Source of the DNA: Escherichia coli
GTDB lineage: Bacteria; Pseudomonadota; Gammaproteobacteria; Enterobacterales; Enterobacteriaceae
DNA length: 64,000 nt
Direction: 5' to 3' (one strand)
NCBI RefSeq assembly: GCF_001677475.2
Contig: NZ_CP015229.1
Made by a program: the position numbers and the translations under genes. Under the pieces are notes generated by a model. It had not been told where the DNA came from. It saw only the letters and a program-made list of their open reading frames with translations, and did not search any database. Below are positions 9,100 through 60,580 of this stretch, piece after piece (position 1 is the stretch's first letter; the number at the start of each line of letters is the position of its first letter).

Positions 9100-9215
9100 T
9101 GCGCTTTGTCATGCCGGATGCGGCGTGAACGCCTTATCCGGCCTACAAAAACCTGCAAATTCAATATATTGCAGGATACGTGTAGGCCTGATAAGCGTAG
9201 CGCATCAGGCAACTT
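9100..9215. repeat. REP/BIME-type palindromic units in the mscS-fbaA intergenic region
   Basis: gccggatgcggcgtgaacgccttatccggcctac and gtaggcctgataagcgtagcgcatcaggca, the typical enterobacterial REP motif in inverted orientation. Confidence 0.65.
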
Positions 9216-45921: not shown

Positions 45922-46511
45922 TGGATAGTTATATCGCGCTTACACTGTTTGGCTGTTTTTTTGTGCTGGTCTTTATTGGTGTGCCCATTTCGTTCTCAAT
46001 CGGTATTGCCACTGTAGCTTCAATGCTGTTGATGTTTCCCTGGGATATCGCGGCAATCACTGTTTCGCAGCGACTGGCTAATGGACTGGATAACTTTGCC
46101 CTATTGGCAATCCCCTTTTTCATCTTTGCCGGAACGCTGATGAACAGCGGCGGTATTGCGATACGTTTGATTAACCTCGCCCAGGTAATGGTTGGCCGCG
46201 TTCCTGGTTCGCTTGGTCATGTGAACGTCCTGGCGAATATGATGTTTGGTTCCATTTCTGGTTCAGCCGTTGCGGCAGCTGCTGCCGTTGGTGGCACACT
46301 GAATCCCATTCAGACCAAAGAAGGTTATGATCCGGCATTTTCTACCGCTGTAAACGTCTCATCCTGTATTACTGGATTACTGATACCGCCCTCAAACGTG
46401 TTAATTGTGTTTTCCCTGACAGCTGGCGGCGTTTCTGTAGCATCGCTATTTATGGCGGGATATTTGCCAGGGATCTTAATGGGTCTCGCGGTAATGGTTG
46501 TCTGCGCGTAA
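45921..46511 (+). pseudogene. TRAP transporter large permease (DctM family), N-terminal fragment cut by IS66 insertion
   Basis: Only ~196 codons of a normally ~430-aa permease; the frame runs into the IS66 left inverted repeat and stops at a TAA inside it (46509-46511). Confidence 0.7.
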
Positions 46512-46592
46512 GCGTAAACCGACCGCCGTATGTAGCCATTAGACAAGAATTGGTAACTTAGACGCCCATCTGACACAGACGGACATCTAAGT

Positions 46593-47012
46593 ATGGAATT
46601 ACAGGACTGGCGAAAAGAACCTCGTAAAAAGTATTCGAATGAATTCAAACTTCGTATGGTTGAACTGGCATCACAACCCGGTGCTTGTGTGGCTCAGATT
46701 GCACGAGAAAATGGCGTCAATGATAATGTTATTTTCAAATGGCTCAGACTCTGGCAAAACGAAGGGCGTATATCACGGCGTCTTCCGGTGACAACCACTT
46801 CTGATGCAGGCCTTGAATTATTACCTGTAGAGATAACCTCTGATGAGCCGAAAGAACCGATGGCTGCTCTTACTCCGCCCTTATCCACTCAGACTACTGT
46901 CAGTGCCAGCTCCTGCAAGGTGGAGTTCCGTCACGGTAACATGACGCTGGAAAATCCTTCACCAGAGCTGCTCACTGTATTGATTCGTGAACTGACCGGG
47001 AGGGGAAGATGA
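46593..47012 (+). CDS. IS66-family accessory protein (orf1, HTH)
   Basis: 139-aa first ORF of the IS66 triplet. Confidence 0.75.
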   Translation: MELQDWRKEPRKKYSNEFKLRMVELASQPGACVAQIARENGVNDNVIFKWLRLWQNEGRISRRLPVTTTSDAGLELLPVEITSDEPKEPMAALTPPLSTQTTVSASSCKVEFRHGNMTLENPSPELLTVLIRELTGRGR

Positions 47013-47359
47013 TCTCACTCCCATCCGGTACCCGTATCTGGCTCGTTGCCGGGATAACCGATATGCGTAAGTCTTTCAACGGGCTGGGTGAACAGGTACA
47101 GCATGTGTTAAATGTTAATCCCTTCTCCGGTCACCTGTTTATCTTCCGTGGCCGACGGGGTGACACCGTTAAAATTCTTTGGGCTGATGCTGATGGTCTG
47201 TGCCTGTTCACCAAACGCCTGGAGGAAGGCCAGTTTATCTGGCCTGCGGTGCGTGACGGTAAGGTATCCATTACCCGCTCGCAACTGGCAATGCTCCTCG
47301 ATAAGCTGGACTGGCGTCAGCCAAAAACATCCCGCCTTAACGCCCTGACAATGTTGTAA
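47009..47359 (+). CDS. IS66-family accessory protein (orf2)
   Basis: 116-aa ORF overlapping orf1 by 4 bp. Confidence 0.75.
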   Translation: MISLPSGTRIWLVAGITDMRKSFNGLGEQVQHVLNVNPFSGHLFIFRGRRGDTVKILWADADGLCLFTKRLEEGQFIWPAVRDGKVSITRSQLAMLLDKLDWRQPKTSRLNALTML

Positions 47360-47389
47360 AAAACGCCTGGCCGCATTATAAAAACGGCC

Positions 47390-48982
47390 ATGAGTCAGAA
47401 ATACCTCATTCGCATTGCAGAACTGGAAAGCCAGCTCCGTCAGAAAGACCAGCAACTGAGTCTGGTTGAAGAGACGGAGGCCTTCCTGCGCTCTGCACTG
47501 GCACGTGCCGAAGAAAAGATCGAAGAAGATGAACGGGAAATAGAACATCTGCGGGCTCAGATAGAAAAACTGCGCCGGATGCTGTTCGGTACCCGTTCTG
47601 AAAAACTGCGTCGTGAAGTTGAACAGGCTGAGGCCCTGCTGAAACAACGCGAACAGGACAGCGATCGTTACAGTGGGCGGGAAGACGATCCACAGGTTCC
47701 CCGCCAGTTGCGACAGTCGCGCCATCGTCGTCCGTTACCGGCACACCTTCCCCGTGAAATACACCGTCTGGAGTCTGAAGAAAGTTGTTGCCCGGAATGT
47801 GGCGGCGAGCTGGATTATCTGGGGGAAGTCAGTACTGAGCAGCTGGAACTGGTGAGCAGCGCCCTGAAAGTGATCCGCACAGAACGGGTAAAAAAAGCCT
47901 GTACAAAATGTGACTGCATCATTGAAGCACCGGCGCCGTCCCGCCCGATAGAGCGTGGTATCGCGGGCCCCGGATTACTTGCCCGCGTGTTAACGGGAAA
48001 ATACTGCGAACACCTGCCACTGTATCGTCAGAGTGAAATCTTTGCCCGACAGGGTGTCGAACTGAGCCGTGCATTACTCTCCAACTGGGTTGACGCGTGC
48101 TGCCAGTTAATGATGCCGCTGAATGATGCCCTGTACCGTTATGTGATGAATACCCGCAAGCTTCACACTGACGACACACCGGTAAAGGTACTGGCACCGG
48201 GCTTGAAAAAGACGAAAACAGGGCGCATCTGGACGTATGTCCGGGATGATCGCAATGCGGGTTCGTCATCTCCTCCGGCGGTCTGGTTCGCGTACTCACC
48301 GAACCGGCAGGGGAAACACCCGGAGCAACACCTCCGCCCCTTCCGGGGTATCCTGCAGGCGGATGCGTTCACAGGTTATGACAGGCTGTTCAGTGCAGAA
48401 CGTGAAGGTGGTGCGCTGACAGAAGTTGCGTGCTGGGCCCATGCCCGGAGAAAAATCCACGATGTATACATCAGCAGCAAAAGTGCGACGGCAGAAGAAG
48501 CCCTGAAGCGAATCAGTGAACTGTACGCCATCGAGGATGAAATACGGGGATTACCAGAGTCAGAGCGTCTTGCAGTCAGACAGCAGCGAAGCAAAGCGTT
48601 ACTGACGTCGCTGCATGAATGGATGGTGGAGAAGAATGGCACGCTGTCGAAAAAATCCAGACTGGGCGAAGCGTTCAGCTATGTACTGAATCAGTGGGAC
48701 GCCCTCTGTTATTACAGTGATGACGGACTGGCGGAGACGGACAATAACACAGCGGAAAGAGCGCTTCGTGCAGTCTGTCTTGGAAAGAAAAATTACGTGT
48801 TCTTCGGTAGCGATCACGGTGGCGAGCGTGGTGCACTGCTATACGGGCTGATCGGCACCTGCCGTCTGAACGGTATCGATCCGGAAGCGTATCTGCGCCA
48901 TATTCTGAGCGTACTGCCGGAATGGCCCTCCAACCGTGTTGACGAACTCCTGCCATGGAACGTGGTTCTCACCAATAAATAA
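47390..48982 (+). CDS. IS66-family transposase (orf3)
   Basis: 530-aa ORF with N-terminal coiled coil, CxxC zinc region and DDE-type core. Confidence 0.8.
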   Translation: MSQKYLIRIAELESQLRQKDQQLSLVEETEAFLRSALARAEEKIEEDEREIEHLRAQIEKLRRMLFGTRSEKLRREVEQAEALLKQREQDSDRYSGREDDPQVPRQLRQSRHRRPLPAHLPREIHRLESEESCCPECGGELDYLGEVSTEQLELVSSALKVIRTERVKKACTKCDCIIEAPAPSRPIERGIAGPGLLARVLTGKYCEHLPLYRQSEIFARQGVELSRALLSNWVDACCQLMMPLNDALYRYVMNTRKLHTDDTPVKVLAPGLKKTKTGRIWTYVRDDRNAGSSSPPAVWFAYSPNRQGKHPEQHLRPFRGILQADAFTGYDRLFSAEREGGALTEVACWAHARRKIHDVYISSKSATAEEALKRISELYAIEDEIRGLPESERLAVRQQRSKALLTSLHEWMVEKNGTLSKKSRLGEAFSYVLNQWDALCYYSDDGLAETDNNTAERALRAVCLGKKNYVFFGSDHGGERGALLYGLIGTCRLNGIDPEAYLRHILSVLPEWPSNRVDELLPWNVVLTNK

Positions 48983-49012
48983 GCGTCAATACGGTGCTCC
49001 GTTGACGCTTAC

Positions 49013-49624
49013 GGCCAGCGATACATACTGAGAACCTTTATCACTGTGATGGATTGTGCCGGACGGCCGACGGGCCCACAACGCCTGCTCCAGTGCATCC
49101 AGCACGAATGTTGTTTCCATGGATGATGAGACCTGCCATCCCACGATGTATCCGGCGAACACATCAATGATGAACGCCACATAAACGAAGCCCTGCCATG
49201 TGCTTACCCAGGTAAAATCAGCCACCCACAACTGGTCTGGACGTTCTGCCACGAACTGACGGTTTACGCGGTCGCATGCGGCAACGGCTTTCCGGCTGAC
49301 GGTAGTGCGGACCTTTTTACCCCGGAGAACACCGGCAAGTCCCATAACTGCCATGAGACGTGCCACAGTGCATCTGGCCACTCTGATACCTTCCCGTAAC
49401 AACTGACGCCAGACTTTACGCACACCGTATACCTGGTGATTTTCATCGTATACGCGCTGTATCTCTTTCTTCAGCCAGTCATCGTGCTGCGCACGGGCAC
49501 TGCGTTTATCCGGATGATGTCGCTGTTGCTGACAATGGTAATACGTTGACGGGGCAATATGCAGTTCGCTGCATACCGGTCCGACCCCGTACTGCTCACG
49601 CAGCTTATCCAGCAGTGGCATCAT
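49013..49624 (-). pseudogene. IS3-family transposase OrfB, 3'-truncated
   Basis: About 200 of ~296 expected codons; the frame terminates inside the abutting IS66 sequence. Confidence 0.7.
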
Positions 49625-49947
49625 TTTTTCCAGAGGCGGTCGAACTCCGCCTTCGCAAAATAAGCGGAAGCCTGGCGAAGGATATCGTTACTGCGGCGCA
49701 GTTCACGATTTTCACGTTCCAGCTCTTTCAGACGCTGACGTTCAGCGCTGGTGAGCCCACCATCACCGCCCCCGGTATCCCGCTCATGCTGGCGAACCCA
49801 GACACGCAGAGTCTCCGGCGTACAGCCAATCTTTGGGGCAATGGAACAAATTGCCGCCCACTGTGAGTCATATTCATCCTGACTTTCCAGAACCATACGA
49901 ATCGCCCGCTGACGGACTTCGGGGGAAAAACGAGTATTTTTAGTCAT
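49621..49947 (-). CDS. IS3-family transposase OrfA (IS629-like)
   Basis: 108-aa HTH/leucine-zipper OrfA starting [22 protein letters not shown]. Confidence 0.8.
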
Positions 49948-50040: not shown

Positions 50041-50550
50041 GTGCTTTCAGCAGACCAGATGATGCAGCTCAGCAGAACACTGTTAAATCATGCGTCAGAG
50101 TGGATAACCCTTTCCGGTCAGCAGATAACGCGACTGACAGAATTCCCCCCGGCATACAACCTGCAACGCAGTGTGCAATTGCTGCAGCAACTGATGGTAC
50201 TTTTCCCCGACAATCCTCGTGTTCAGGAAATGGTGGATAACTGGCAGAAGAGTGCAAGGAGTCGTGCGCTCCCGGAAGAGGCGATGACTGGCTGGAACGA
50301 AGGCATGACCCGCTTACAGCTGTTGGCTGAGCGCCTGAACCGTCCAGATGAACAGCGGGGAAAATACATGACGGTCAGTGAGCTGAAAACGGAGGTGTCT
50401 GGCATCATGCAGGCTTTTAACCGGCATATCCTGGCAGAAGAACAGTTGTGTCACTATGGTGAAGTCCGCAACCAGAATGGAAGCGAGCAGCAGCAAAAAC
50501 AAATGAAAGATGCATTTGTTAAGCTGATTCATTTTTACTGTTTTATATAA
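50041..50550 (+). CDS. Hypothetical protein, possibly the 3' remnant of a gene disrupted by the IS3-family element
   Basis: 169-aa ORF from a GTG; the same frame stays open upstream across the IS boundary at 50001. Confidence 0.3.
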   Translation: MLSADQMMQLSRTLLNHASEWITLSGQQITRLTEFPPAYNLQRSVQLLQQLMVLFPDNPRVQEMVDNWQKSARSRALPEEAMTGWNEGMTRLQLLAERLNRPDEQRGKYMTVSELKTEVSGIMQAFNRHILAEEQLCHYGEVRNQNGSEQQQKQMKDAFVKLIHFYCFI

Positions 50551-50603: not shown

Positions 50604-51311
50604 TTGTTTGTGGAGTGTTTAAGCGCTTTTGGATGTTCGTCTGTTGTTTCGAATAGTATGGTGAATATGAATGGTAAATATAATGTCAGGAGTGAATTGT
50701 TAGCTCGTTGTATCGGAACTGGTAGATTGAAAGGAGATGTGAGAAGTGATTTTATTGGGTTTAATGGTAGTAAACAGGTAGGTTATGTTTTATTAACTTT
50801 ATTCTTAACGAAAGTAACAAATTCTGATTTGCTCTCTCATTATCGTATATTTAATCGTTTTTTGCATTATGAGAGAAAAGTTATGGACATATATAATTCT
50901 TTGAGTGATATAGAAGTTGATTGTATTTGCCAGGAAGTGATGGCTATATATGAACATACTCAGCGATGCTGCAACGAAAAGAAAATCACAACTATCCAGT
51001 TAGGCAGGAAACTTAATGGCAGGTATGCAGATACGATTGCTGAGTTAAAAGAAACAGCAGAGATAAGAGGGGAGGATGTGATTTCTTTTGAGATGGATAT
51101 ATTGAATTCTTTTAATGATGCGGATGAATATCACGGACGTGTTAAACTGGAGTTGGATATACCTGCTTCAGATATATTATATTGCCATGATTTTATTGAT
51201 TCAAAACATGTAAACTCCTGGTTGGTTGAACCACATGAGTGGGTGGTTATAAATCGTTCTCTCAATGGGATTGTTACAGTGCCAGTATCATCAATAAAGA
51301 TTCTTTATTGA
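50604..51311 (+). CDS. Hypothetical protein (AT-rich gene)
   Basis: 235-aa ORF in a markedly AT-rich stretch; no recognisable motif. Confidence 0.35.
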   Translation: MFVECLSAFGCSSVVSNSMVNMNGKYNVRSELLARCIGTGRLKGDVRSDFIGFNGSKQVGYVLLTLFLTKVTNSDLLSHYRIFNRFLHYERKVMDIYNSLSDIEVDCICQEVMAIYEHTQRCCNEKKITTIQLGRKLNGRYADTIAELKETAEIRGEDVISFEMDILNSFNDADEYHGRVKLELDIPASDILYCHDFIDSKHVNSWLVEPHEWVVINRSLNGIVTVPVSSIKILY

Positions 51312-51451: not shown

Positions 51452-52684
51452 ATGAATGATAATTTTTTAACGGAGAAAGTCCTTACTGGAGAGAATGTTC
51501 TGCGTGCAGCAATTGCTCGTATTGAGTGGATTTTTGAAACATTTCCATCAGTTTGTCTCTCTTTTTCCGGTGGTAAAGATTCCACCGTGCTTTTCCATCT
51601 TGTGGCTGATGTGGCCCGCAGGAAAAGACGTCGTTTCTCTGTACTGTTCATTGACTGGGAGGCTCAGTACCAGTGCACCATTGAACATATTCAGAAGATG
51701 CGGGAAATGTACTATGATGTGACGGAAACCTTTTACTGGGTGGCGCTTCCCCTGACCACGGTAAACGGTGTCTCGCAGTTTCAACCGGAGTGGATATGCT
51801 GGGAGCCTCGTGTGACCTGGGTTCGCCAGCCACCGGAAGAGGCCATTACGGATATGGCGTATTTTCCCTTTTACCGGTATGCCATGGCGTTTGAAGAATT
51901 TGTTCCGGCATTTTCTTCCTGGTTTGCTGGCAACCGGTGTGGAGTGGCAGTGCTGACCGGTGTCCGGGCGGATGAATCCCTCAACCGCTTTATGGGACTG
52001 GTGTCCCAGCGCAAACTGAGATATGCCAATGATAAGCCTTGGACCACGGCATCGCCTGAAGGGTTTTACTACACTATGTATCCGCTGTATGACTGGAAAA
52101 CTCGTGATATCTGGATATATCACACCAGAACCCGTGCCATCTACAATCCCCTGTATGATCTGATGTACCGTGCCGGCGTACCGTTACGCAACATGCGTGT
52201 CTGTGAACCTTTTGGTCCTGAACAACGTAAGGGACTGTGGCTTTACCATGTTCTGGAACCGGAAACCTGGGCCAGGATGTGTGAGCGGGTGTCAGGGGCT
52301 GCCAGCGGGGCACTTTATGCCAATGAAAGCGGGGCTTATTTTGCCCTGCGTAAGCGCATATCAAAACCAGCCCATCATACCTGGCGCAGCTATGCGATGT
52401 TTCTGCTGGATGTGATGCCGGAAAGAACGGCAGAACATTACCGCAACAAGATAGCTGTCTATCTGCGCTGGTATCAGACGCGGGGCTTCCCGGATGACAT
52501 CCCGGATGAACAGGAGAATGACCTGGGGAGCCGGGATATTCCGTCCTGGCGACGTATCTGTAAGACTCTCATAAAGAATGATTTCTGGTGCCGTACCCTC
52601 TCCTTCAGTCCGAACAAACCCCGGCACTATGAACGTTATCTGCAGCGTATGAAAGAAAGGAGGAAGGAATGGGGGATTCTGTGA
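51452..52684 (+). CDS. PAPS-reductase-family PP-loop protein (IbrA-like)
   Basis: 410-aa ORF with PP-loop SFSGGKDS near the N-terminus; overlaps the following ParB-like gene. Confidence 0.7.
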   Translation: MNDNFLTEKVLTGENVLRAAIARIEWIFETFPSVCLSFSGGKDSTVLFHLVADVARRKRRRFSVLFIDWEAQYQCTIEHIQKMREMYYDVTETFYWVALPLTTVNGVSQFQPEWICWEPRVTWVRQPPEEAITDMAYFPFYRYAMAFEEFVPAFSSWFAGNRCGVAVLTGVRADESLNRFMGLVSQRKLRYANDKPWTTASPEGFYYTMYPLYDWKTRDIWIYHTRTRAIYNPLYDLMYRAGVPLRNMRVCEPFGPEQRKGLWLYHVLEPETWARMCERVSGAASGALYANESGAYFALRKRISKPAHHTWRSYAMFLLDVMPERTAEHYRNKIAVYLRWYQTRGFPDDIPDEQENDLGSRDIPSWRRICKTLIKNDFWCRTLSFSPNKPRHYERYLQRMKERRKEWGIL

Positions 52685-53307
52685 CACCGGAGATACTGAG
52701 CAACATGATTCGTCAGTACTTCAGCCAGGAACGACCAGAAGAAGAGGCCATACAGGCCCTGAATCATCTGCGCAGGGTGCTTCATGAGGTCAGTCCATTT
52801 GCACAGGAGCCTGTGGACTGTGTGCTGTGGGTGAAAGCAGATGAGGTGGTGGCCAACGATTATAACCCCAATGTCATGGCGCCGGGTGAGAAGAAACTGC
52901 TGAAACATTCACTGGAGCAGGATGGGTTCACGCAGCCTGTGGTTGTCTCGGAAGAGAAGGAGCATTATCTGGTCGTGGATGGTTTTCATCGTCAATTACT
53001 GGGCAGGGAAGCAGGTACGGGAAAACGCCTGAAGGGCTGGTTGCCAGTGACCTGTATTAATCCGGAAAGAAAGGGACAGGCCTCACGTATTGCTGCAACC
53101 ATTAGACATAACCGGGCCAGGGGGAAGCACCAGATAACTTCAATGTCTGATATTGTCAGGGACCTGTCGCGGCTGGGCTGGACGGATGAACGTATTGGTA
53201 CGGAGCTGGGTATGGACCAGGATGAAGTTCTCAGGTTGAAACAGATTAGCGGGCTGACGGAGCTGTTTCTGGAAGAGGATTTCAGTCCGGCATGGACGGT
53301 TCGCTGA
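52669..53307 (+). CDS. ParB/sulfiredoxin-domain protein (IbrB-like)
   Basis: 212-aa ORF containing VVVDGFHRQ (ParB N-terminal DGxHR-type motif); 16-bp overlap with the upstream gene. Confidence 0.65.
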   Translation: MGDSVTPEILSNMIRQYFSQERPEEEAIQALNHLRRVLHEVSPFAQEPVDCVLWVKADEVVANDYNPNVMAPGEKKLLKHSLEQDGFTQPVVVSEEKEHYLVVDGFHRQLLGREAGTGKRLKGWLPVTCINPERKGQASRIAATIRHNRARGKHQITSMSDIVRDLSRLGWTDERIGTELGMDQDEVLRLKQISGLTELFLEEDFSPAWTVR

Positions 53308-53385
53308 GACCGTCATATATGTATATTATTTCAGTGAGTTAATGTTTTGAGCAGGAAAAAGAGTACCCCGGAAGTCGTGGAAGAC

Positions 53386-53655
53386 ATGGTTGCACAGAAG
53401 CTGGAGGCTGCGGGTTGCTGGCGCAGAGCTTCCGCCCGCTGGCTTTTTGTTATGGGAAATGTTGAATGTACAGAAGCACAACGGGAGTGGTTGTTGTTGC
53501 GCAGGAATTATTGCCTGGCGCAGATATCGTCCCCGCCGCTACCTGAAAAGCTGGATATCAGCGAAGTGGCGAAAGCTGCAGATGCCACGCTGAGGCGAAT
53601 GGGGATTGCCAGTCCGTCCGGGGAGGTATTCAGAAAAGGTACACCGGTCTGTTGA
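53386..53655 (+). CDS. PerC-family-like small transcriptional activator (tentative)
   Basis: 89 aa from ATG at 53386; GCWRRASARW...REWLLLRRNYCLAQ resembles PerC/Pch-type regulators as recalled; the ORF track starts it at an upstream TTG (53347). Confidence 0.4.
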   Translation: MVAQKLEAAGCWRRASARWLFVMGNVECTEAQREWLLLRRNYCLAQISSPPLPEKLDISEVAKAADATLRRMGIASPSGEVFRKGTPVC

Positions 53656-53675: not shown

Positions 53676-54320
53676 ATGATAAAGAAAGGAATGGCAAACA
53701 GTATATCAATGACATGGCAACTTTTATGCGATGATCATGGTTTTACCCGGGAGCACTACAATCAGCTGAAGAAATTCAGCCCGGAGGCATTACGTGAAAT
53801 TATTGCTGAAATAGCCTGCTGCCATCCGTCAACCAGTATATTGCTCAGGAATAAGTGGCTGACACCGCCGGAGGATATTCCGGAGCAGGTTACCCGTGAA
53901 TACGAACGAAGAATACAGAACTGTCCATCTTTCAGGAGCGAGAAAGAGGCGGAATCCTGGCTAAATGAACTGTTTTTTGCTGTGATTGCGCCGCTATACC
54001 GGGTTGTCCCCGGACAATCAGAACAGGTTGAATCCTTTGTTCTGCAGCTTATTGCCGAACAGGAGCGGGTTTGGGAGCTTATTCTAACCAATGATGGTTA
54101 TTCATGGCATTGCGCACTTTATGATATATTATTTCATCTGGTTTTACGAAATATGGAAGACCAGCCTGAACATCAGAGACAGCGAATAACAAAAATACTT
54201 AATGAGTCCGATACAAGGCGGGTTGCAGAAGAGATTAAATTCCGGATTCAATATCTTCAGGATGAAGAACAAAAGAGAGTTTTAAGTGAGTTGGTAAATG
54301 TCCTGATTTCAAAAAGATAA
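53676..54320 (+). CDS. Hypothetical protein
   Basis: 214-aa ORF, no recognisable motif. Confidence 0.4.
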   Translation: MIKKGMANSISMTWQLLCDDHGFTREHYNQLKKFSPEALREIIAEIACCHPSTSILLRNKWLTPPEDIPEQVTREYERRIQNCPSFRSEKEAESWLNELFFAVIAPLYRVVPGQSEQVESFVLQLIAEQERVWELILTNDGYSWHCALYDILFHLVLRNMEDQPEHQRQRITKILNESDTRRVAEEIKFRIQYLQDEEQKRVLSELVNVLISKR

Positions 54321-54708: not shown

Positions 54709-54715
54709 AAAATAA

Positions 54716-54740
54716 GGGTATAAATACTTATTTATACCCT
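54716..54740. terminator. Hairpin between convergent genes
   Basis: 11-bp perfect stem gggtataaata/tatttataccc with loop ctt, placed between the 54385-54708 ORF and the helicase gene stop. Confidence 0.5.
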
Positions 54741-54755
54741 GACTACATATCCAGT

Positions 54756-56954
54756 CTACTGAAGGTGTTTCTGCAGCCAGATGCACGTTCCTTTTATATC
54801 ATACGCCTGTGCCCCATACCCTTTAGCAAGCAAAGTCTCTGGTAAATACTCGTCATATTTATCCAGATACTTGTCGGGAACAACTGCAGCAAGCTCAAAC
54901 TCTGAAGGTAGCCCCGACAATAGCATTTTCTTAAGTGCACGCTGGACAGAGGCAACGCCTGAGTCCTCTACCTCTATCACACCTGCAAATGAACTGGCTT
55001 TAAAGCCACAACGTATAATCAGGGACGTAATTGTATTGACAATTTTATCCCCCATCCACGGGATCACGTAGCAGTTCTGACCACTGGCAATAAAACAGTC
55101 ATTTTGTAGATTGTAGCGTTGGAAGTTGTCACTTCCTTCCGCGAAGAGGCTTCTGGCTGCGGCATCAGCATAATCGACTCTCTTGTTGCCTACCGCGATA
55201 CGGTAATCATTTTCCCTGTAGATAGTGAGCATTTCCTGGCGAACAACATCATGAACAGACATCCCGGTACCACTGAATAGTGGCGGCTGACCGCCTTTAG
55301 TCGTCTCAACATAGATAACCTTTTTTTCAACCTCGATCTCTGTCACTTTCCAGCGCCGTCCGCCGAAGATGATGTGCTGCTCCGGCAAAAGTGGGGAGTC
55401 TACAGGCACTGTGCCAAGAGTTCGGTTTCCCGTTACAATGCGAAACTCCTCAGGTGTATTGAATACGGCATAAAACGTGTAGTGATTAGTCAGCTTCTCC
55501 CCCTCAGCCCCGACAACTATTTCACCGCTGGTTAGTTGAGTGAGCAGGCCACATGTCCCCATATGTTTAAGCAGACTTTTGAAGTCATTTATATCCACAT
55601 TCCGGAACGGACCTGTCTGGCAAAGTTGTGACCAGAGCTGATCGGCACGAACACCTCCCCATTGCGCAGTAATAGCCAGGATCTGGTGTAGTAGTGTGGA
55701 GTAATGTTTCTGCCGGATATCTGCAGGCTCGAACCAGCGCTTAGAGATCATCAACCTGATCATTGCCATCGCCTGAACCAACTGCAGCCGTAAATGATCC
55801 ACAATGCTGCTGGTTGCGGTAAGTTCAGGTTCAGTAATTAACATTCTCAGCACCGATGGGGAATCGCGCCGCCCTGAACGTCCCATGCGTTGACGCAGAC
55901 TGGAAACAGAATGCGGAGGTGTCACTTGTATGACAGACTGCACCTTACCAATATCAATACCCAGCTCCAGCGTCATTGTACAAACAGCGGTTGTGGGCAA
56001 ATTCCCTTTCTGCAGTCGGGCTTCAAGCGCCTCACGCAACTCCCTTGCAAGGGAACCATGATGAGGAAAGAATTCATTAGGAACGACATTTGCTTCACAC
56101 ATGTCGCTCAGTGTTGCCGCTATGCTTTCAGTACGCTTTCGACTGTTAGCAAAGACCAGGTGGGAATCGCCACGGCAGAGCCTGAAAATATCCGCGCAGA
56201 CGAGCTGTTCAGCAGAGCTCTGGAGCTCTTCTCCTTTTTCGGGCACCCGCTCAAGATAACCTTTAACCTGAACCTGTAGTGTGGCTTTGCTATTACTGTC
56301 TGTTACCGTTTCACAAGGTAATCTCTTATCCGGGCGCAATAGTTCTGGTACTTTTTCCAGCTCTCCCAGCGTGGCACTCAACGCGACACGGGGAACTGGA
56401 TTCAACTGGCGTCCCAGCACATGGTCAATTCTGTTAAGCAGAGAAAGCAGCTGTATACCACGCTCTGAGCCAATAAAAGCATGGAACTCATCAATAACAA
56501 TGTATGCCACAGAAGAAAACGCCTGTTTGAGCCAACCCAATGAGTTTATGAGCAAAGACTCAAGTGATTCAGGTGTGATAAGTAAGATGCCAGAAGGGGT
56601 TGTCCGTGCTTTCTTCTTTTTGCTTTGTGGTACATCCCCGTGCCAGGGCGTCACTTGCATTTCCAGGGCTTCACCAAGACTCTCAAGACGACGGTGTTGA
56701 TCGTTAATTAATGCCTTCAATGGACTGATATAGATAATGCCAAATCCACCAGTGAGATCTGCAATCGCTGAACAGGCAGGAAGAAAGAAAGCCTCTGTTT
56801 TACCCGCAGCTGTACCTGCACTAATTAGTACATCACGATCACGGGCTAAAATTGCCGGAATAGAGCTTTCCTGCAAGGGCCTTAAGGATGACCAGCCCTG
56901 CTTATAAACCCACTTACGGACACGGGGATCAAGACTATTGTAGGCACTACTCAT
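54756..56954 (-). CDS. DEAD/DEAH-box (Lhr-like) helicase; third gene of the candidate defence operon (SngC-like)
   Basis: 732-aa ORF with helicase motifs: Q (LRPLQ), I (AGTAAGKTEAF), II (DEFHAF), III (SAT), VI (QRMGRSGRR); overlaps the upstream ATPase gene by 4 bp. Confidence 0.8.
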   Translation of the reverse strand: MSSAYNSLDPRVRKWVYKQGWSSLRPLQESSIPAILARDRDVLISAGTAAGKTEAFFLPACSAIADLTGGFGIIYISPLKALINDQHRRLESLGEALEMQVTPWHGDVPQSKKKKARTTPSGILLITPESLESLLINSLGWLKQAFSSVAYIVIDEFHAFIGSERGIQLLSLLNRIDHVLGRQLNPVPRVALSATLGELEKVPELLRPDKRLPCETVTDSNSKATLQVQVKGYLERVPEKGEELQSSAEQLVCADIFRLCRGDSHLVFANSRKRTESIAATLSDMCEANVVPNEFFPHHGSLARELREALEARLQKGNLPTTAVCTMTLELGIDIGKVQSVIQVTPPHSVSSLRQRMGRSGRRDSPSVLRMLITEPELTATSSIVDHLRLQLVQAMAMIRLMISKRWFEPADIRQKHYSTLLHQILAITAQWGGVRADQLWSQLCQTGPFRNVDINDFKSLLKHMGTCGLLTQLTSGEIVVGAEGEKLTNHYTFYAVFNTPEEFRIVTGNRTLGTVPVDSPLLPEQHIIFGGRRWKVTEIEVEKKVIYVETTKGGQPPLFSGTGMSVHDVVRQEMLTIYRENDYRIAVGNKRVDYADAAARSLFAEGSDNFQRYNLQNDCFIASGQNCYVIPWMGDKIVNTITSLIIRCGFKASSFAGVIEVEDSGVASVQRALKKMLLSGLPSEFELAAVVPDKYLDKYDEYLPETLLAKGYGAQAYDIKGTCIWLQKHLQ

Positions 56955-58267
56955 AATCTGAAATTCGCCAGGCCATCATCGTCATCACTTTCCTCCACAA
57001 TGGCATCATCCATATCGCTGAGCTTGTCTTCTTCAATCGCCACCCCCTCAATGAGGGTTTGCCAGTTCATCGTTCTGTTTTGTTCCAGCACAGCCAGCAT
57101 ATCCAGAAAACCTTTTATGGTATTGCGGGGAGTTCGAAAGTAAGCATCTCCGATGGTTTTGCTGCAGTGATGCAGAAACCCGGTCAGAGCATCATCTGGC
57201 ACCAGATAATTTGCGGGATCTCCACCAGCATAAACATGACGAAGGTTTTTCAGTAAAATATACAGTTCCTCAGGAGTGAGGCTGGCAAGATGCAGCGTGG
57301 GGGACGAGTAGTCAATCACGCCAGCTTTCTGTGCGAATCGGTTTTCTGCCAGACGCGACTGGAGCGCTTCATAGCTGTAGAGCCCCTTACGTGGATCGAA
57401 AAGAAATTCTGGCGTCCCCCCGAGGATAAAACCAATATTTTCGGCGGAGCCTTGCAGGCAGTCATTCAGGATCCGCAAAATTTGTTCGTAGTTGGCCGTT
57501 CTCGCTTGCGTATTATTCAACTTGAAGAGGTTCACCATCTCGTCGAGGCTAACTAAAAGTCCGGCATAGCCTGCCTGACGGACAAAAAGGCTCATCAACT
57601 TCAAAGAATCATAGAACGAGGCGTCTGAGATAATCGTTCGGACGTCAAGATCATTACGGGCATCAGTTTTTGTGGTGTACTCGCCCCGCAACCAGCGAAT
57701 AGCATTGGATTTTAAGGTTTCGTTATCCTGCTCATGCCCGCGCCAGAATGCGTCAATGACCTTCGCAAAGTCATATCCTCCCACCATATCTGACAAAGCA
57801 GCAAGGCGTTTATGAATAACGGATGAGACCAGGGAGCCGTTCGCATCAGCTTCCTTCCTTGCCTCAGTAACAAACCTTTCCACAACGCTAAGTAATGCAT
57901 TGCCATCTGGTTTGTTTCTGGTGGACATATTTTTCATAAGCTCTGAGTAGAGATTACGAGCCTGACCTCCCGATGAGTGGATACGTCTGTCGGGAGAAAG
58001 GTCTGCACTGACCGTGACCAGCTTCTTCTCTAACGCAATAGACCGTACAACACTTAAAAAGAATGTTTTCCCGGAACCGTACTCACCAATGATAAGTCTG
58101 AAGCTTGCCCCGCCATCAGCAATCCGTTCAATATCCTGATGGAGGGCGGTTATCTCATTCACGCGGCCAACCTGGATATGCTGAATACCTATTCTTGGCG
58201 TTACTCCCGACTTAAGTGACTGAATGATAGCGTCGCGCTCTTTCACTCTTATACGTGTTACAGACAT
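56951..58267 (-). CDS. P-loop ATPase; second gene of the candidate defence operon (SngB-like)
   Basis: 438-aa ORF with Walker A GEYGSGKT and Walker B-like LLVSLDE; 3 bp from the upstream gene stop. Confidence 0.75.
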   Translation of the reverse strand: MSVTRIRVKERDAIIQSLKSGVTPRIGIQHIQVGRVNEITALHQDIERIADGGASFRLIIGEYGSGKTFFLSVVRSIALEKKLVTVSADLSPDRRIHSSGGQARNLYSELMKNMSTRNKPDGNALLSVVERFVTEARKEADANGSLVSSVIHKRLAALSDMVGGYDFAKVIDAFWRGHEQDNETLKSNAIRWLRGEYTTKTDARNDLDVRTIISDASFYDSLKLMSLFVRQAGYAGLLVSLDEMVNLFKLNNTQARTANYEQILRILNDCLQGSAENIGFILGGTPEFLFDPRKGLYSYEALQSRLAENRFAQKAGVIDYSSPTLHLASLTPEELYILLKNLRHVYAGGDPANYLVPDDALTGFLHHCSKTIGDAYFRTPRNTIKGFLDMLAVLEQNRTMNWQTLIEGVAIEEDKLSDMDDAIVEESDDDDGLANFRL

Positions 58268-58270
58268 TCA

Positions 58271-60580
58271 CTAACCCTCTAATTCTTTGGCTATTTCCAG
58301 GTCAATCCAAATGTGATCATCAGCATCTTCCAGCACTGGTGCATCAACCACCGCATAGGACCAATCGTTAATCACCTCAAGCGCACCGCCGAGCATCAGG
58401 TTCCAGTTACTACACAACTCTGTCGCCTCTTTTCTGGACCATTGTTCTTTCTCCAGCAACCTGCGATAAAGTTGGCTATGAGCGGAGTCAAGTCCCCCTT
58501 CCCCGGTTAATGAGGCTGGAGCGCTTTCTGGTTGTTCTGGTTCTTCTTCAGTGAAAATTGAGTTCAGTAATTTACGAACATCATCAGTGGCAGATTCGTG
58601 GCGGGCAAGTACGTTGGCATCCAGCGTAAACCCTGCCGTCGACTGATTAGCTGGTACAGATGAAACGAGAGCAGTTTCAGTTGCGGAATGCTGATGGATA
58701 TTGCTTGATACGGATGAGGGATCCAGTCCCAGGCTTGTATAAATCTTCTCAAGCTGTTTGATTTCGGCAGGCGTAATTCTGCCGTCAGAGCAAGCGACAC
58801 TAACGATAACCTTACCCACAGCTGATTTTTCCGCTGCACCGAGTAATTCAATCCGGCTTTTCATTCCCGTCATATTCGCCGGAGTATGAAGCTGCCACGT
58901 TAAATATGCGTGCAGAGAGCGCTTTTCATCATCGCTGAAGCTGGCATTGTTGTTGATGGCATTCTCAAGCACTTTCTGTTCGGCTTGATCGAGAGAATTG
59001 TCAATCAAGGCGACTACCGAACCTAATCGGAGCGTCAATACAGCTGTGATAAATTCAGGAGAAGGTGAGAAACGTCCTCTTTCACCAGCAGGGAATAAAA
59101 CAAGTACACCATCGACATCTGCCTTTACGTGGTGGTGATAGGGGTCAGGAGCCAGACAGTATCCCATTTTCTGTGCAAAGGCTTGCATTAAGTCGGCCTC
59201 TTTTTTATTGATCTTCGCCGGACAGGTGGCATTCATATGTGACCAGTAGTCAGCAACTGAAACTATCCCACCCTTACTGCGGATTGCGTCATCAGCCCAG
59301 TGTTTGAATGTACTTAATATTTTTTCTGCGCTTTCGTTAACGATTTCTGAAGGCAGCAACAAAATTGCAGCGGTATCATTTGCTGAAGTACCTTTTCTAC
59401 CAAGGTAACGACTGTAAGCATCCAGTTCACCTGTGCATATATCGGCAATGGCCATAAGCTTCTGAACAGGGCCTTTCAATGCACCTGGATCAGGCAAGTC
59501 GGGAACAGGAAGCCGAATACCTCGCAAACTGGGACTTGCAGGCGTGTAATCTAAACGCAGACGCGCTTTATTCGGCTTCACTACCATCCCTTCACCGTAT
59601 TTAAGGGTGTAACGCCGTTTAAATAGTGCAGCAAATTCTTTCGCACAGCGGCGGGCGGGGGTTCGTAATGAGTATTCAGCATGGTTTGTCACCCACGTCA
59701 GAGCCAGATCCGCTGGAACCGGGGCTCCTGTATCAACAGTCTTTGCCAGGATTAACCTGAACTGCATGCTATTGCTGAACTCCGAATCATCGTTGAGAGC
59801 TGCTGCAAGATTTTCGTTCGGACGAAGAATGGACATCGCTTCAAGTAACTGGGATGAGTAATTCCGGAAAGATCGGTTTTCATTGAAAACCGATCTGAGA
59901 CGGCAGATCTCTTTGAAAAGAGAATAGAACTCATCGTCGGATATATTGTTGTCCCTGCTGTCAACAAGCGCCCTTCTTTCCAGACCATACAGATAAATGA
60001 AAACGTAACCAATTGGGCAGGAAGTGTCGCATCTGTCGCTGGCAAGCCAACTCAGGTACGCACCACGAGCTTCAGGTGAAAGTGAGGAAAAACTGGGCCA
60101 ATACCCTAATGAACTATCTTCGTAAATGTAAGGTGTGGGGGATATTTTAAGCGTGTCGTCAACTAGCGATGCCTCGTTATTGCCATCATAATAACCGCCT
60201 GAGTTATGCCCGGCAGGTTTCATACGCTGCCCAAGATAGAAGTGACCGCCGGTAACCTCTATCCCACTGACTGTGATCATCTCTCCCGGAAAAATCCAAC
60301 GAGCCAAAGCACCGGTAGTTTTTGAGAAATTCTGGCGTTGAGTGGCTGTTATGCTGTATTCGACATTCCGCCCGCCACTTAGTGTAAACGTAGCCAGATT
60401 GTCATCTTCGCTGTCCTCGTTTTGCATTACAGACTGATTTTTTTTGTTGTTAGCAAGCCATTCTTTAGGTGGTGCTTTCACAGGAGCGGAAGTATAAGAG
60501 CCCGCGGACTTAGTTTTCTTCTTTTTGAAAAAAAGAATATAAATCAAATAAATAGCTACTATAAATATCCATAACTCCAT
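58271..60580 (-). CDS. Membrane-anchored protein with TerB-like motif; first gene of the candidate defence operon (SngA-like)
   Basis: 769-aa ORF; N-terminal hydrophobic helix (ELWIFIVAIYLIYILFF) then KKKK; internal segment VIVSVACSDGRITPAEIKQLEKI resembles the TerB-type xxADGxxxxxExxxL helix. Confidence 0.6.
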   Translation of the reverse strand: MELWIFIVAIYLIYILFFKKKKTKSAGSYTSAPVKAPPKEWLANNKKNQSVMQNEDSEDDNLATFTLSGGRNVEYSITATQRQNFSKTTGALARWIFPGEMITVSGIEVTGGHFYLGQRMKPAGHNSGGYYDGNNEASLVDDTLKISPTPYIYEDSSLGYWPSFSSLSPEARGAYLSWLASDRCDTSCPIGYVFIYLYGLERRALVDSRDNNISDDEFYSLFKEICRLRSVFNENRSFRNYSSQLLEAMSILRPNENLAAALNDDSEFSNSMQFRLILAKTVDTGAPVPADLALTWVTNHAEYSLRTPARRCAKEFAALFKRRYTLKYGEGMVVKPNKARLRLDYTPASPSLRGIRLPVPDLPDPGALKGPVQKLMAIADICTGELDAYSRYLGRKGTSANDTAAILLLPSEIVNESAEKILSTFKHWADDAIRSKGGIVSVADYWSHMNATCPAKINKKEADLMQAFAQKMGYCLAPDPYHHHVKADVDGVLVLFPAGERGRFSPSPEFITAVLTLRLGSVVALIDNSLDQAEQKVLENAINNNASFSDDEKRSLHAYLTWQLHTPANMTGMKSRIELLGAAEKSAVGKVIVSVACSDGRITPAEIKQLEKIYTSLGLDPSSVSSNIHQHSATETALVSSVPANQSTAGFTLDANVLARHESATDDVRKLLNSIFTEEEPEQPESAPASLTGEGGLDSAHSQLYRRLLEKEQWSRKEATELCSNWNLMLGGALEVINDWSYAVVDAPVLEDADDHIWIDLEIAKELEG

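Follow-up and report, generated by a model that had tools for sequence, protein, structure and literature searches.

The IbrA/IbrB pair of an Escherichia coli island: a strictly linked PP-loop enzyme and ParB-like protein with a possible DNA-directed role

Two overlapping genes, ibrA and ibrB, encode a PP-loop enzyme and a ParB-like protein on an accessory island of Escherichia coli, and raise the question of what chemistry this pair performs and on which substrate. The copy analyzed here lies in a 64,000-nucleotide (nt) stretch, hereafter the window, of contig NZ_CP015229.1 (RefSeq assembly GCF_001677475.2). An initial annotation, made without database searches, had described an IbrA/IbrB-like pair of a phosphoadenosine phosphosulfate (PAPS)-reductase-like protein and a ParB/sulfiredoxin (Srx) protein, had compared it with DndC and DndB of DNA phosphorothioation and had pointed to a candidate defence operon beside it. 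Both open reading frames (ORFs) are found in the ORF list on the + strand exactly where they had been placed (Table 1).

Our answer, which is a tentative one, is that the two proteins may form a DNA-directed two-component module in which IbrB would bring an ATP-adenylating IbrA to DNA. The observations behind it are the identities of the domains, the conservation of their motifs, the strict linkage of the two genes, the lack of thiol or iron–sulfur (Fe-S) residues in IbrA, and the mobile-element and DNA-metabolism contexts of the pair.

Identity, spread and linkage of the pair

What the locus carries is an accessory IbrA/IbrB operon that moves horizontally and is paralogous to the core ybdN/ybdM pair. 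Every sequence-level defining feature of the IbrA/IbrB (YbdN/YbdM) family that was looked for is present. RefSeq, at identical coordinates in other strains, names the products 'phosphoadenosine phosphosulfate reductase', 'IbrB-like domain-containing protein' and then 'PerC family transcriptional regulator', and the window IbrA is 90.8% identical to IbrA of Escherichia phage PhiR5_2, whose annotation calls both genes 'Co-activator of prophage gene expression IbrA / IbrB'. The likeness to IbrA/IbrB proposed in the initial annotation was thus sound. Nothing at the locus is new: earlier records cover the genes, what they are called, the fact that they are paired and their occurrence in phages. Public databases contain the exact protein sequences (that of IbrB on at least 1000 contigs), and the same 4.75-kb block occurs in 445 genomes. 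Passing mentions of the pair also exist for Flavobacterium phages, glacial viromes and the Heimdallarchaeal virus HeimV2.

The ECOR-9 IbrA/IbrB pair has the same two-gene operon and the same architecture (PAPS_reduct and DUF3440; ParB-like and helix-turn-helix, HTH), likewise on an E. coli island. Direct alignment to the ECOR-9 sequences was not possible, so the orthology of the window copy to that allele rests on database names. Compared with the ECOR-9 pair, the window copy is followed by perC and flanked by a Shango operon, an arrangement that is one of several island variants. At a coverage of at least 80%, the pair is present in 2029 of 5426 complete E. coli genomes, at up to four places per genome and with 78 on plasmids; its other contexts include an O157:H7 island with the same ibrA-ibrB-perC-ORF214 order, a solitary pair in strain DA33135 and a fec/iro virulence plasmid.

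The ybdN/ybdM paralogue, so named by RefSeq, is found in 5419 of the 5426 genomes, and most E. coli with ibrAB therefore carry two or more copies of the module. YbdN/YbdM share the architecture and gene order of the window pair, the IbrA half with ~60% protein identity. In a one-genome-per-species scan, this subgroup kept a fixed enterobacterial chromosomal context beside the LysR regulator gene ybdO, dsbG, ahpCF and an aminotransferase gene, whereas the window pair is accessory and found in several contexts and on plasmids. The only study of ybdNM that we found reports its repression by the LysR regulator YbdO/CitR (PMC9068703). Listeria monocytogenes also keeps a core ParB/DUF3440 pair, lmo1309/lmo1310 (PMC7020466).

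To describe the linkage of the two genes, we used 79 genomic loci from species-representative genomes, one genome per species. In 79/79 of them, IbrA has an IbrB homologue (E 1e-25 to 1e-99) encoded on its own strand no more than 420 nt away, in most cases just downstream, and overlapping or abutting junctions are the rule. The loci come from Proteobacteria (Enterobacterales, Alphaproteobacteria, Xanthomonadales, Helicobacter), Clostridia, Bacilli, Mollicutes, Bacteroidota, Verrucomicrobiota, Lentisphaerota, Coriobacteriia (Actinomycetota) and one Asgard metagenome-assembled genome (MAG). Hence ibrA and ibrB are strictly co-inherited across many phyla, which removes the worry of the initial annotation that the pair might be confined to a single lineage with no conserved linkage. 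The window copy shows the same tight arrangement: the two ORFs overlap by 16 nt, and the Shine-Dalgarno sequence GGAGG of ibrB lies within the 3' end of ibrA, an organization typical of translational coupling.

A library of 50% cluster representatives contained 1866 relatives of IbrA at E ≤ 0.001, and homologues of each of the two proteins number several thousand. No IbrA-IbrB fusion was seen among 150 representatives; what did occur were insertions, one intein and a probable assembly chimera that includes a UvrA-like piece. A metagenomic IbrA homologue, P0390 (631 amino acids, aa), matches the IbrA profile over residues 6-217 and 455-568 and carries, inside the conserved YN..YD motif, an insertion of ~240 residues that is intein-like by eye. 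Some IbrB homologues have additional domains; that of a Cellvibrionaceae MAG, of ~390 aa, is encoded upstream of ibrA, not downstream. A contig of 27 kb from a Candidatus Prometheoarchaeum MAG (Asgard-binned) holds an IbrA/IbrB pair with 42% identity to the window IbrA, in agreement with the report of IbrA/IbrB on HeimV2 (PMC8813620).

Domains and predicted chemistry of IbrA and IbrB

The domains claimed in the initial annotation, a PAPS-reductase-like PP-loop enzyme and a ParB/Srx protein, are borne out by Pfam, PHROG and our alignments, and the motif alignments of both proteins are far beyond chance. IbrA matches the Pfam families PAPS_reduct (PF01507, residues 34-89 and 165-240), PP-loop and DUF3440 (PF11922, residues 242-345 with E 1.5e-24, and 359-390), as well as PHROG 2302 'PAPS reductase' (E 1.5e-83). 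The SGGKDS PP-loop (residues 39-44) is real and correctly placed: it is at least 90% conserved across 84 IbrA homologues, and the profile built from them aligns it to the corresponding loops of CysD (SIGKDS) and of human flavin adenine dinucleotide (FAD) synthase (NGGKDC). The window protein has all the other family residues (D68, E70, R172, E175/S176, R179, D214/W215, D219, Y231/N232 and Y235/D236), which are invariant or at least 90% conserved in the same set. By contrast with these motifs, no cysteine is conserved among the 84 homologues, the richest column (82% Cys) having Ala in the window protein and the other columns at most 54% Cys. With no conserved Cys, IbrA would have nothing to hold an Fe-S cluster or to serve as a catalytic thiol, and in this it differs from CysH, APS reductase, DndC and the thiolases.

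The family-level Pfam match and the RefSeq and PHROG names would make IbrA a true PAPS reductase and, in phages, a sulfur auxiliary metabolic gene, but this is almost certainly not the case. PAPS and adenosine phosphosulfate (APS) reductases are defined by a C-terminal catalytic Cys in an ECGLH-type motif. IbrA is without it; after YNxLYD, its sequence runs on into the helical DUF3440. Its PP-loop is of the canonical ATP type, where the PAPS reductase in the same alignment has SSSFG, and its constant pairing with a ParB-like protein is contrary to a role as PAPS reductase. Its scores also remain far below the NCBIfam cut-offs (36.0 versus 254.2 bits for TIGR02057, 30.5 versus 165.1 for cysH TIGR00434, and 36.3 versus 154 for NF002537). 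This candidate was rejected on the hidden Markov model (HMM) cut-offs, the ATP-type PP-loop and the lack of a conserved Cys.

The parallel with DndC and DndB stood as far as the superfamilies go and no further. Indeed, the two superfamilies are shared: in IbrAB as in DndC/DndB, a PP-loop ATP pyrophosphatase of the PAPS-reductase-like kind is paired with a ParB/Srx protein that bears DGxHR. IbrA also gives weak local matches to DndC (PADLOC, 19.5 and 16.3 bits; NCBIfam, 14.9) and to BrxP (26.9 bits). A Dnd/Ssp-like module, with IbrA acting as DndC, IbrB as DndB and a phosphorothioate or other thio-modification as the product, could be drawn from these likenesses, but it is highly unlikely. The DndC model TIGR03183 scores IbrA at 14.9 bits against a cut-off of 290.4 and aligns residues 165-228 only; IbrA has no conserved cysteine for a [4Fe-4S] cluster or a persulfide relay; and the C-terminal DUF3440 domain is a feature of IbrA that sets it apart from DndC. 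IbrB has no match to DndB or SspB (for DndB, none at E ≤ 0.01 in NCBIfam and PADLOC), the DGxHR-type motif alone being common to both. No cysteine desulfurase (dndA/iscS), DndD or DndE lies near the window pair or recurs in the 79 loci, and the closest structures to IbrA are sulfur-free adenylyltransferases. Membership in Dnd/Ssp was rejected on the HMM cut-offs, the missing Cys and the missing partner genes.

An NCBIfam model also exists for CysD, and here IbrA reaches 31 bits against a cut-off of 195, which places it outside all the named NCBIfam families tested (PAPS reductase, cysH, CysD and DndC). The AlphaFold2 model of IbrA (mean predicted local distance difference test score, pLDDT, 92.4; predicted template modelling score, pTM, 0.90) has a PP-loop alpha/beta domain (~1-240) and a helical DUF3440 domain (~242-410). 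In structure comparisons it was closest to adenylyl-transferring, sulfur-free enzymes, namely CysD and FAD synthase: ~165 residues align with CysD and with the PAPS-reductase-like domain of eukaryotic FAD synthase at 21-23% identity, from which IbrA differs by an extra helical domain of 170 residues and by its obligate ParB-like partner. No solved structure of a close relative was found, the best sequence E-values being 5.7e-4 for IbrA and 0.03 for IbrB. The chemistry of IbrA is probably nearest to that of CysD or FAD synthase, and we infer from these comparisons that it may bind ATP, cleave the alpha-beta phosphate bond and move adenosine monophosphate (AMP) to an acceptor with no thiol or Fe-S chemistry.

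IbrB matches Pfam ParB_N weakly (E 0.013) and PHROG 2159 'ParB-like partition protein' strongly (E 1.4e-81). The DGFHR motif that had been noticed in it (residues 104-108) is real and aligns with ParB box II of solved relatives. In a 31-homologue profile, VDGFHR aligns to the AGERR box of Helicobacter pylori ParB and Noc, NxYNPN to the NPxQPR motif, and LLxxSIxxDGxTQPIVV to ParB box I; the protein also carries RHNRARGxH. The residues invariant among the 31 homologues, all present in the window copy (N63/N66-P67-N68, D104-G105/R108 and R146-H-N-R-A-R-G152/H154), fall in the three boxes that line the ParB nucleotide pocket, here in a variant form (NxYNPN / LLxxSIxxDGxTxP; DGFHR; RHNRARG). The IbrB model (pLDDT 85.3) shows an N-terminal helical hairpin, a ParB/Srx-fold domain (~48-150), a three-helix HTH (~156-200) and a short disordered tail, and matches KorB, PadC, pNOB8 ParB and sigma4/LuxR-type HTH domains. 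The order of a ParB N-domain fold followed by an HTH, as in the CTP-dependent ParB/KorB/Noc clamps, is therefore present in IbrB.

Among DNA-binding partners, IbrB is nearest to KorB/ParB or to DpdB, a ParB-like ATPase that helps DpdA insert preQ0 into DNA (PMC12839542). It also matches PHROG 498 'DNA methyltransferase' (E 7.6e-8), with residues 54-188 aligned to positions 37-161 of a 633-position profile, that is, to its ParB-like region. We take PHROG 498 to include ParB-methyltransferase fusions. These two cases are precedents for ParB-like helpers of DNA-modifying enzymes.

A possible DNA-directed module and its rivals

Phages carry the pair widely. Relatives of IbrA were found in 224 phage genomes of the INPHARED set, with hosts including Flavobacterium, Mycobacterium, Streptococcus, Arthrobacter, Bacillus, Lactobacillus, Listeria, Faecalibacterium and others. 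In all seven phage loci examined, a ParB-like IbrB homologue lies on the same strand less than 1 kb away, adjacent or at most three genes apart, and the core motifs of E. coli IbrB share 40-45% identity with those found in phages of Streptococcus, Lactobacillus, Mycobacterium and Flavobacterium. The pair is placed among replication genes in Gaia, between the large terminase and portal genes in FCL-2 and beside the terminase in Daisy; in Streptococcus phage PY1 and Lactobacillus phage AQ113 it lies just past the lysis genes, ahead of the early genes. In mycobacteriophage Gaia, the IbrB homologue gp104 is longer by ~125 residues at its N terminus and bears the annotation 'ectoine synthase/ParB multidomain protein'.

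In 18 loci from several phyla, three of them phages, the gene that directly precedes ibrA, in the same orientation, encodes an SNF2-related helicase-like protein (~400 aa). It matches PHROG 62, Pfam SNF2-rel_dom and, weakly, DrmD and ZorD; in PY1 it is split into two ORFs, and it is absent from the window. This recurrence suggests that the SNF2-like gene and ibrAB make up a three-gene variant of the module.

We propose that IbrB would use its HTH to bind DNA, with a nucleotide probably acting as the gate, as in KorB, ParB and VirB, and would recruit IbrA, made in step with it through translational coupling. IbrA would then split ATP between the alpha and beta phosphates and pass AMP to an oxygen of a DNA-associated substrate, the candidate acceptors being a DNA phosphate, a DNA base or a bound nucleotide, and the AMP would either stay on the substrate or activate it for substitution. 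The resulting mark would alter how the DNA is read or recognized, which would explain the sole published phenotype, namely that silent eib genes of prophages become active; phages would place this mark on their replicating or packaged DNA. That the two proteins form a complex, that DNA is their target and what the product would be are the parts of this proposal that we infer. The features counted toward the DNA direction are the KorB, ParB and HTH matches, the DGFHR-GERR alignment, PHROG 498, the SNF2-like neighbour, the replication and packaging modules of phages, and the intein in YN..YD.

The published record concerns expression. Its only functional statement, known through later citations, is that the prophage eib genes yield more Eib under the influence of ibrB (Sandt 2002, as cited by PMC7649339 and PMC4541368). 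Together with perC and the next gene, ibrB is co-induced in Shiga toxin-producing E. coli (STEC) on contact with epithelial cells (PMC7649339), and a 73-fold rise in ibrA transcripts accompanied the induction of prophages by carbadox in the pig gut (PMC5550749). The initial annotation had called the biochemical role of the pair unknown, and this agrees with the literature searched, where we found no biochemical or structural study of IbrA, IbrB, YbdN, YbdM or DUF3440.

Several points weigh against a DNA-directed adenylation module. Where the CTP-gated KorB, ParB, Noc and VirB proteins have the CTP-contact patch GERRxRA, IbrB reads VDGFHRY, with one Arg and no GERR arginine pair. It is short (212 aa), with no recognizable C-terminal dimerization domain, and around the operon we found no convincing parS-like or operator palindrome, the sole perfect palindrome being the one downstream of the block (Table 1). 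From its motifs, IbrB is likely to bind a nucleotide, which, with the GERR pair reduced to a single Arg, may be other than CTP. In fold, IbrB resembles sulfiredoxin and small-molecule kinases (SbnI, free serine kinase) as well, so that its substrate might not be DNA. The sole reported phenotype is transcriptional, and a ParB-type regulator could give the same result with no DNA chemistry. Lastly, K-12 carries ybdNM, yet we know of no orphan DNA modification reported there. To this last objection, the repression of ybdNM by YbdO (PMC9068703) may be offered as a counter.

In the main rival, IbrB would be a VirB/KorB-type transcriptional switch that loads on DNA, spreads or slides, and unsilences AT-rich acquired genes such as eib with no DNA chemistry, while IbrA would make, consume or sense the nucleotide ligand of IbrB, or adenylylate IbrB itself. 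Such a switch fits the eib phenotype and the perC neighbour, and we hold it to be a real, if doubtful, possibility. It would leave unexplained the co-inheritance of a full PP-loop enzyme in 79/79 loci, the strictly lytic-looking phages with the pair in replication or packaging modules, and the frequent SNF2-like helicase companion. Moreover, the missing GERR arginine pair and the lack of a palindromic site count against the switch as well.

The positions of the phage copies beside terminase and replication genes could also be read as those of a packaging or partition factor, small-terminase-like or a partition ParB, with the island copies as functionless, decaying remnants. This is very unlikely. 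The pair is intact in the 2029 E. coli genomes, ybdNM is core in 5419 of 5426 and Listeria keeps a core pair (PMC7020466); besides, there is no ParA partner, the pair lies far from the terminase in other phages, and the PP-loop enzyme would be left with no role.

A wider form of the adenylation proposal is an improbable one, although it deserves to be stated. IbrAB/YbdNM would be an undescribed DNA-marking system, in which a nucleotide-gated ParB-like loader and a cysteine-free PP-loop adenylyltransferase write a new covalent mark, which would be an adenylylated intermediate or a group introduced by substitution of such an intermediate. With this mark, phages of Asgard archaea and of at least five bacterial phyla would evade host defences, and resident copies would turn on foreign genes that are silenced.

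The island, its Shango neighbour and the meaning of the pair

In the window, ibrAB belongs to a mosaic, lower-G+C island. Read from its left end, this island comprises a tripartite ATP-independent periplasmic (TRAP) transporter operon cut by IS66, an IS3 fragment, type VI secretion remnants, a 235-aa orphan gene, ibrA-ibrB-perC-ORF214-ORF107, a convergent Shango operon, an outer-membrane protein gene and a phosphoethanolamine transferase gene. The perC gene is probably co-transcribed with ibrAB. Neither ORF214 nor the 235-aa orphan protein has a match in Pfam, NCBIfam, PADLOC or PHROGs. The palindrome after this block is probably a terminator marking its end. Promoter and terminator scans of the locus gave nothing exceeding the shuffled expectation. 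Within the low-G+C TRAP operon, the large-permease gene ends at about half length where the IS66 element starts. The VasL-domain fragment upstream of ibrA is a type VI secretion remnant. Unrelated to ibrAB, the window also contains a match to the small RNA ES036 (CssrF).

Table 1 Positions of features in the window and in compared loci (L numbers designate loci; positions after a colon are within the locus)
Feature	Position	Strand	Basis or remark
ibrA	51452-52684	+	410-aa ORF, ATG start
PP-loop SGGKDS codons	51566-51583	+	IbrA residues 39-44, ATP beta/gamma-phosphate-binding loop; motif position, conservation, alignment
Coupling junction ibrA/ibrB	52659-52684	+	GGAGG 52659-52663, ibrB ATG 52669, overlap to ibrA stop
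ibrB	52669-53307	+	212-aa ORF, ATG start
PerC-family transcriptional activator gene	53347-53655	+	Pfam PerC E 6e-36; RefSeq 'PerC family transcriptional regulator', start at 53386
ORF214	53676-54320	+	214-aa protein after perC; ORF kept in O157:H7
Perfect 12+12 nt palindrome, then T-run	54715-54740	.	Between the + strand block and the convergent Shango operon
SngC helicase	54756-56954	-	PADLOC E 5e-278
SngB ATPase	56951-58267	-	PADLOC E 9e-187
SngA TerB-domain protein	58271-60580	-	PADLOC E 3e-99
TRAP transporter operon, IS66 and IS3 region	44387-49947		DctP 44387-45373; small permease 45409-45921; large permease ends at 46511
IS66 element	46593-48982		tnpA, tnpB, transposase
Truncated IS3	48986-49947		Frameshift pseudoknot (Rfam ALIL, 49550-49666)
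VasL-domain fragment	50041-50550		Upstream of ibrA
235-aa orphan protein	50604-51311		Just upstream of ibrA
ES036 (CssrF) small RNA	9147-9189	+	Rfam, 47.3 bits versus gathering score 37.6
ybdN/ybdM-type loci	L015-L026, e.g. L020:5923-7790		
SNF2-like gene loci	L003:3856-5024, L004:3842-5011, L006:3243-4454		
Further SNF2-like gene loci (15)	L028, L029, L032, L034, L035, L038, L041-L044, L046, L051, L053, L054, L077		
IbrB of Gaia (gp104)	L005:5296-6195		N-terminal extension
IbrB of Cellvibrionaceae MAG	L031:4820-6010		Upstream of ibrA
Prometheoarchaeum pair	L027		
O157:H7 Mokosh-like helicase	L088:4332-6500		
JE86-ST05 NERD+UvrD protein	L001:11063-12808		

The candidate defence operon noticed beside the pair is real: it is a complete Shango operon, with the three genes SngABC recognized by PADLOC over positions 54756-60580, convergent with the ibrAB-perC block. 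Shango thus adjoins the pair, 1.4 kb away on the opposite strand, and the pair might be imagined as its functional accessory, for example as a self-marking module. Two further E. coli strains also encode PADLOC-matching helicases a short distance upstream of the pair. In O157:H7, a 722-aa protein like the Mokosh MkoA helicase region (149 bits) is encoded 0.5 kb upstream on the same strand, and in JE86-ST05 an NERD+UvrD protein (PADLOC C3a187, E 2.5e-137) 2.6 kb upstream. These helicases amount to a weak association, and there are hints that the ibrAB-perC block tends toward defence-rich islands. The Mokosh-like gene of O157:H7 occupies the position that the VasL fragment and the orphan gene have upstream of ibrA in the window. 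A 2026 preprint (bioRxiv 10.64898/2026.04.06.716658) lists, as PANGU-like clusters 8 and 9, candidate defence operons in which a PAPS reductase accompanies a nucleoid-associated protein; one cluster also has Arc- and ParBc-domain proteins.

However, the link between the pair and Shango is weak, and a role as a Shango accessory is extremely unlikely. The two operons are convergent with the terminator-like palindrome between them. As the junction from IbrB-PerC to SngC/SngB is contiguous in only 266 genomes, against the 2029 that carry ibrAB, the pair is not tied to Shango. Across the 79 loci from other taxa, Shango genes do not recur in the neighbourhood of the pair; the pair is also found alone, in phages and on a virulence plasmid, and neither IbrA nor IbrB matches any Sng model of PADLOC. 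Functional coupling to Shango was rejected as a general feature on the rarity of the junction and the lack of recurrence in the 79 loci. The pair is not a sulfate-assimilation enzyme, a Dnd phosphorothioation module or a Shango component. The transcriptional switch remains the main rival of DNA-directed adenylation by IbrAB, all the other alternatives considered being unlikely.

The initial observation was therefore correct but ordinary, and the residual interest lies in the chemistry of a very widespread, strictly paired module. Besides being core in E. coli (ybdNM) and Listeria (lmo1309/1310) and accessory in over a third of complete E. coli genomes, this module is carried by phages of Proteobacteria, Firmicutes, Actinomycetota and Bacteroidota, and an Asgard archaeal virus is reported to have it. 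Since the pair is small, can be separated and occurs in K-12, DNA-directed adenylation, the reading that we favour, lends itself to direct testing. Because IbrA has no conserved Cys, an ATP-type PP-loop and a partner that is always a ParB-like predicted DNA-binding protein, the labels 'phosphoadenosine phosphosulfate reductase' and, in phages, 'auxiliary metabolic gene' are probably wrong, and virome studies that score IbrA genes as sulfur metabolism probably miscount.

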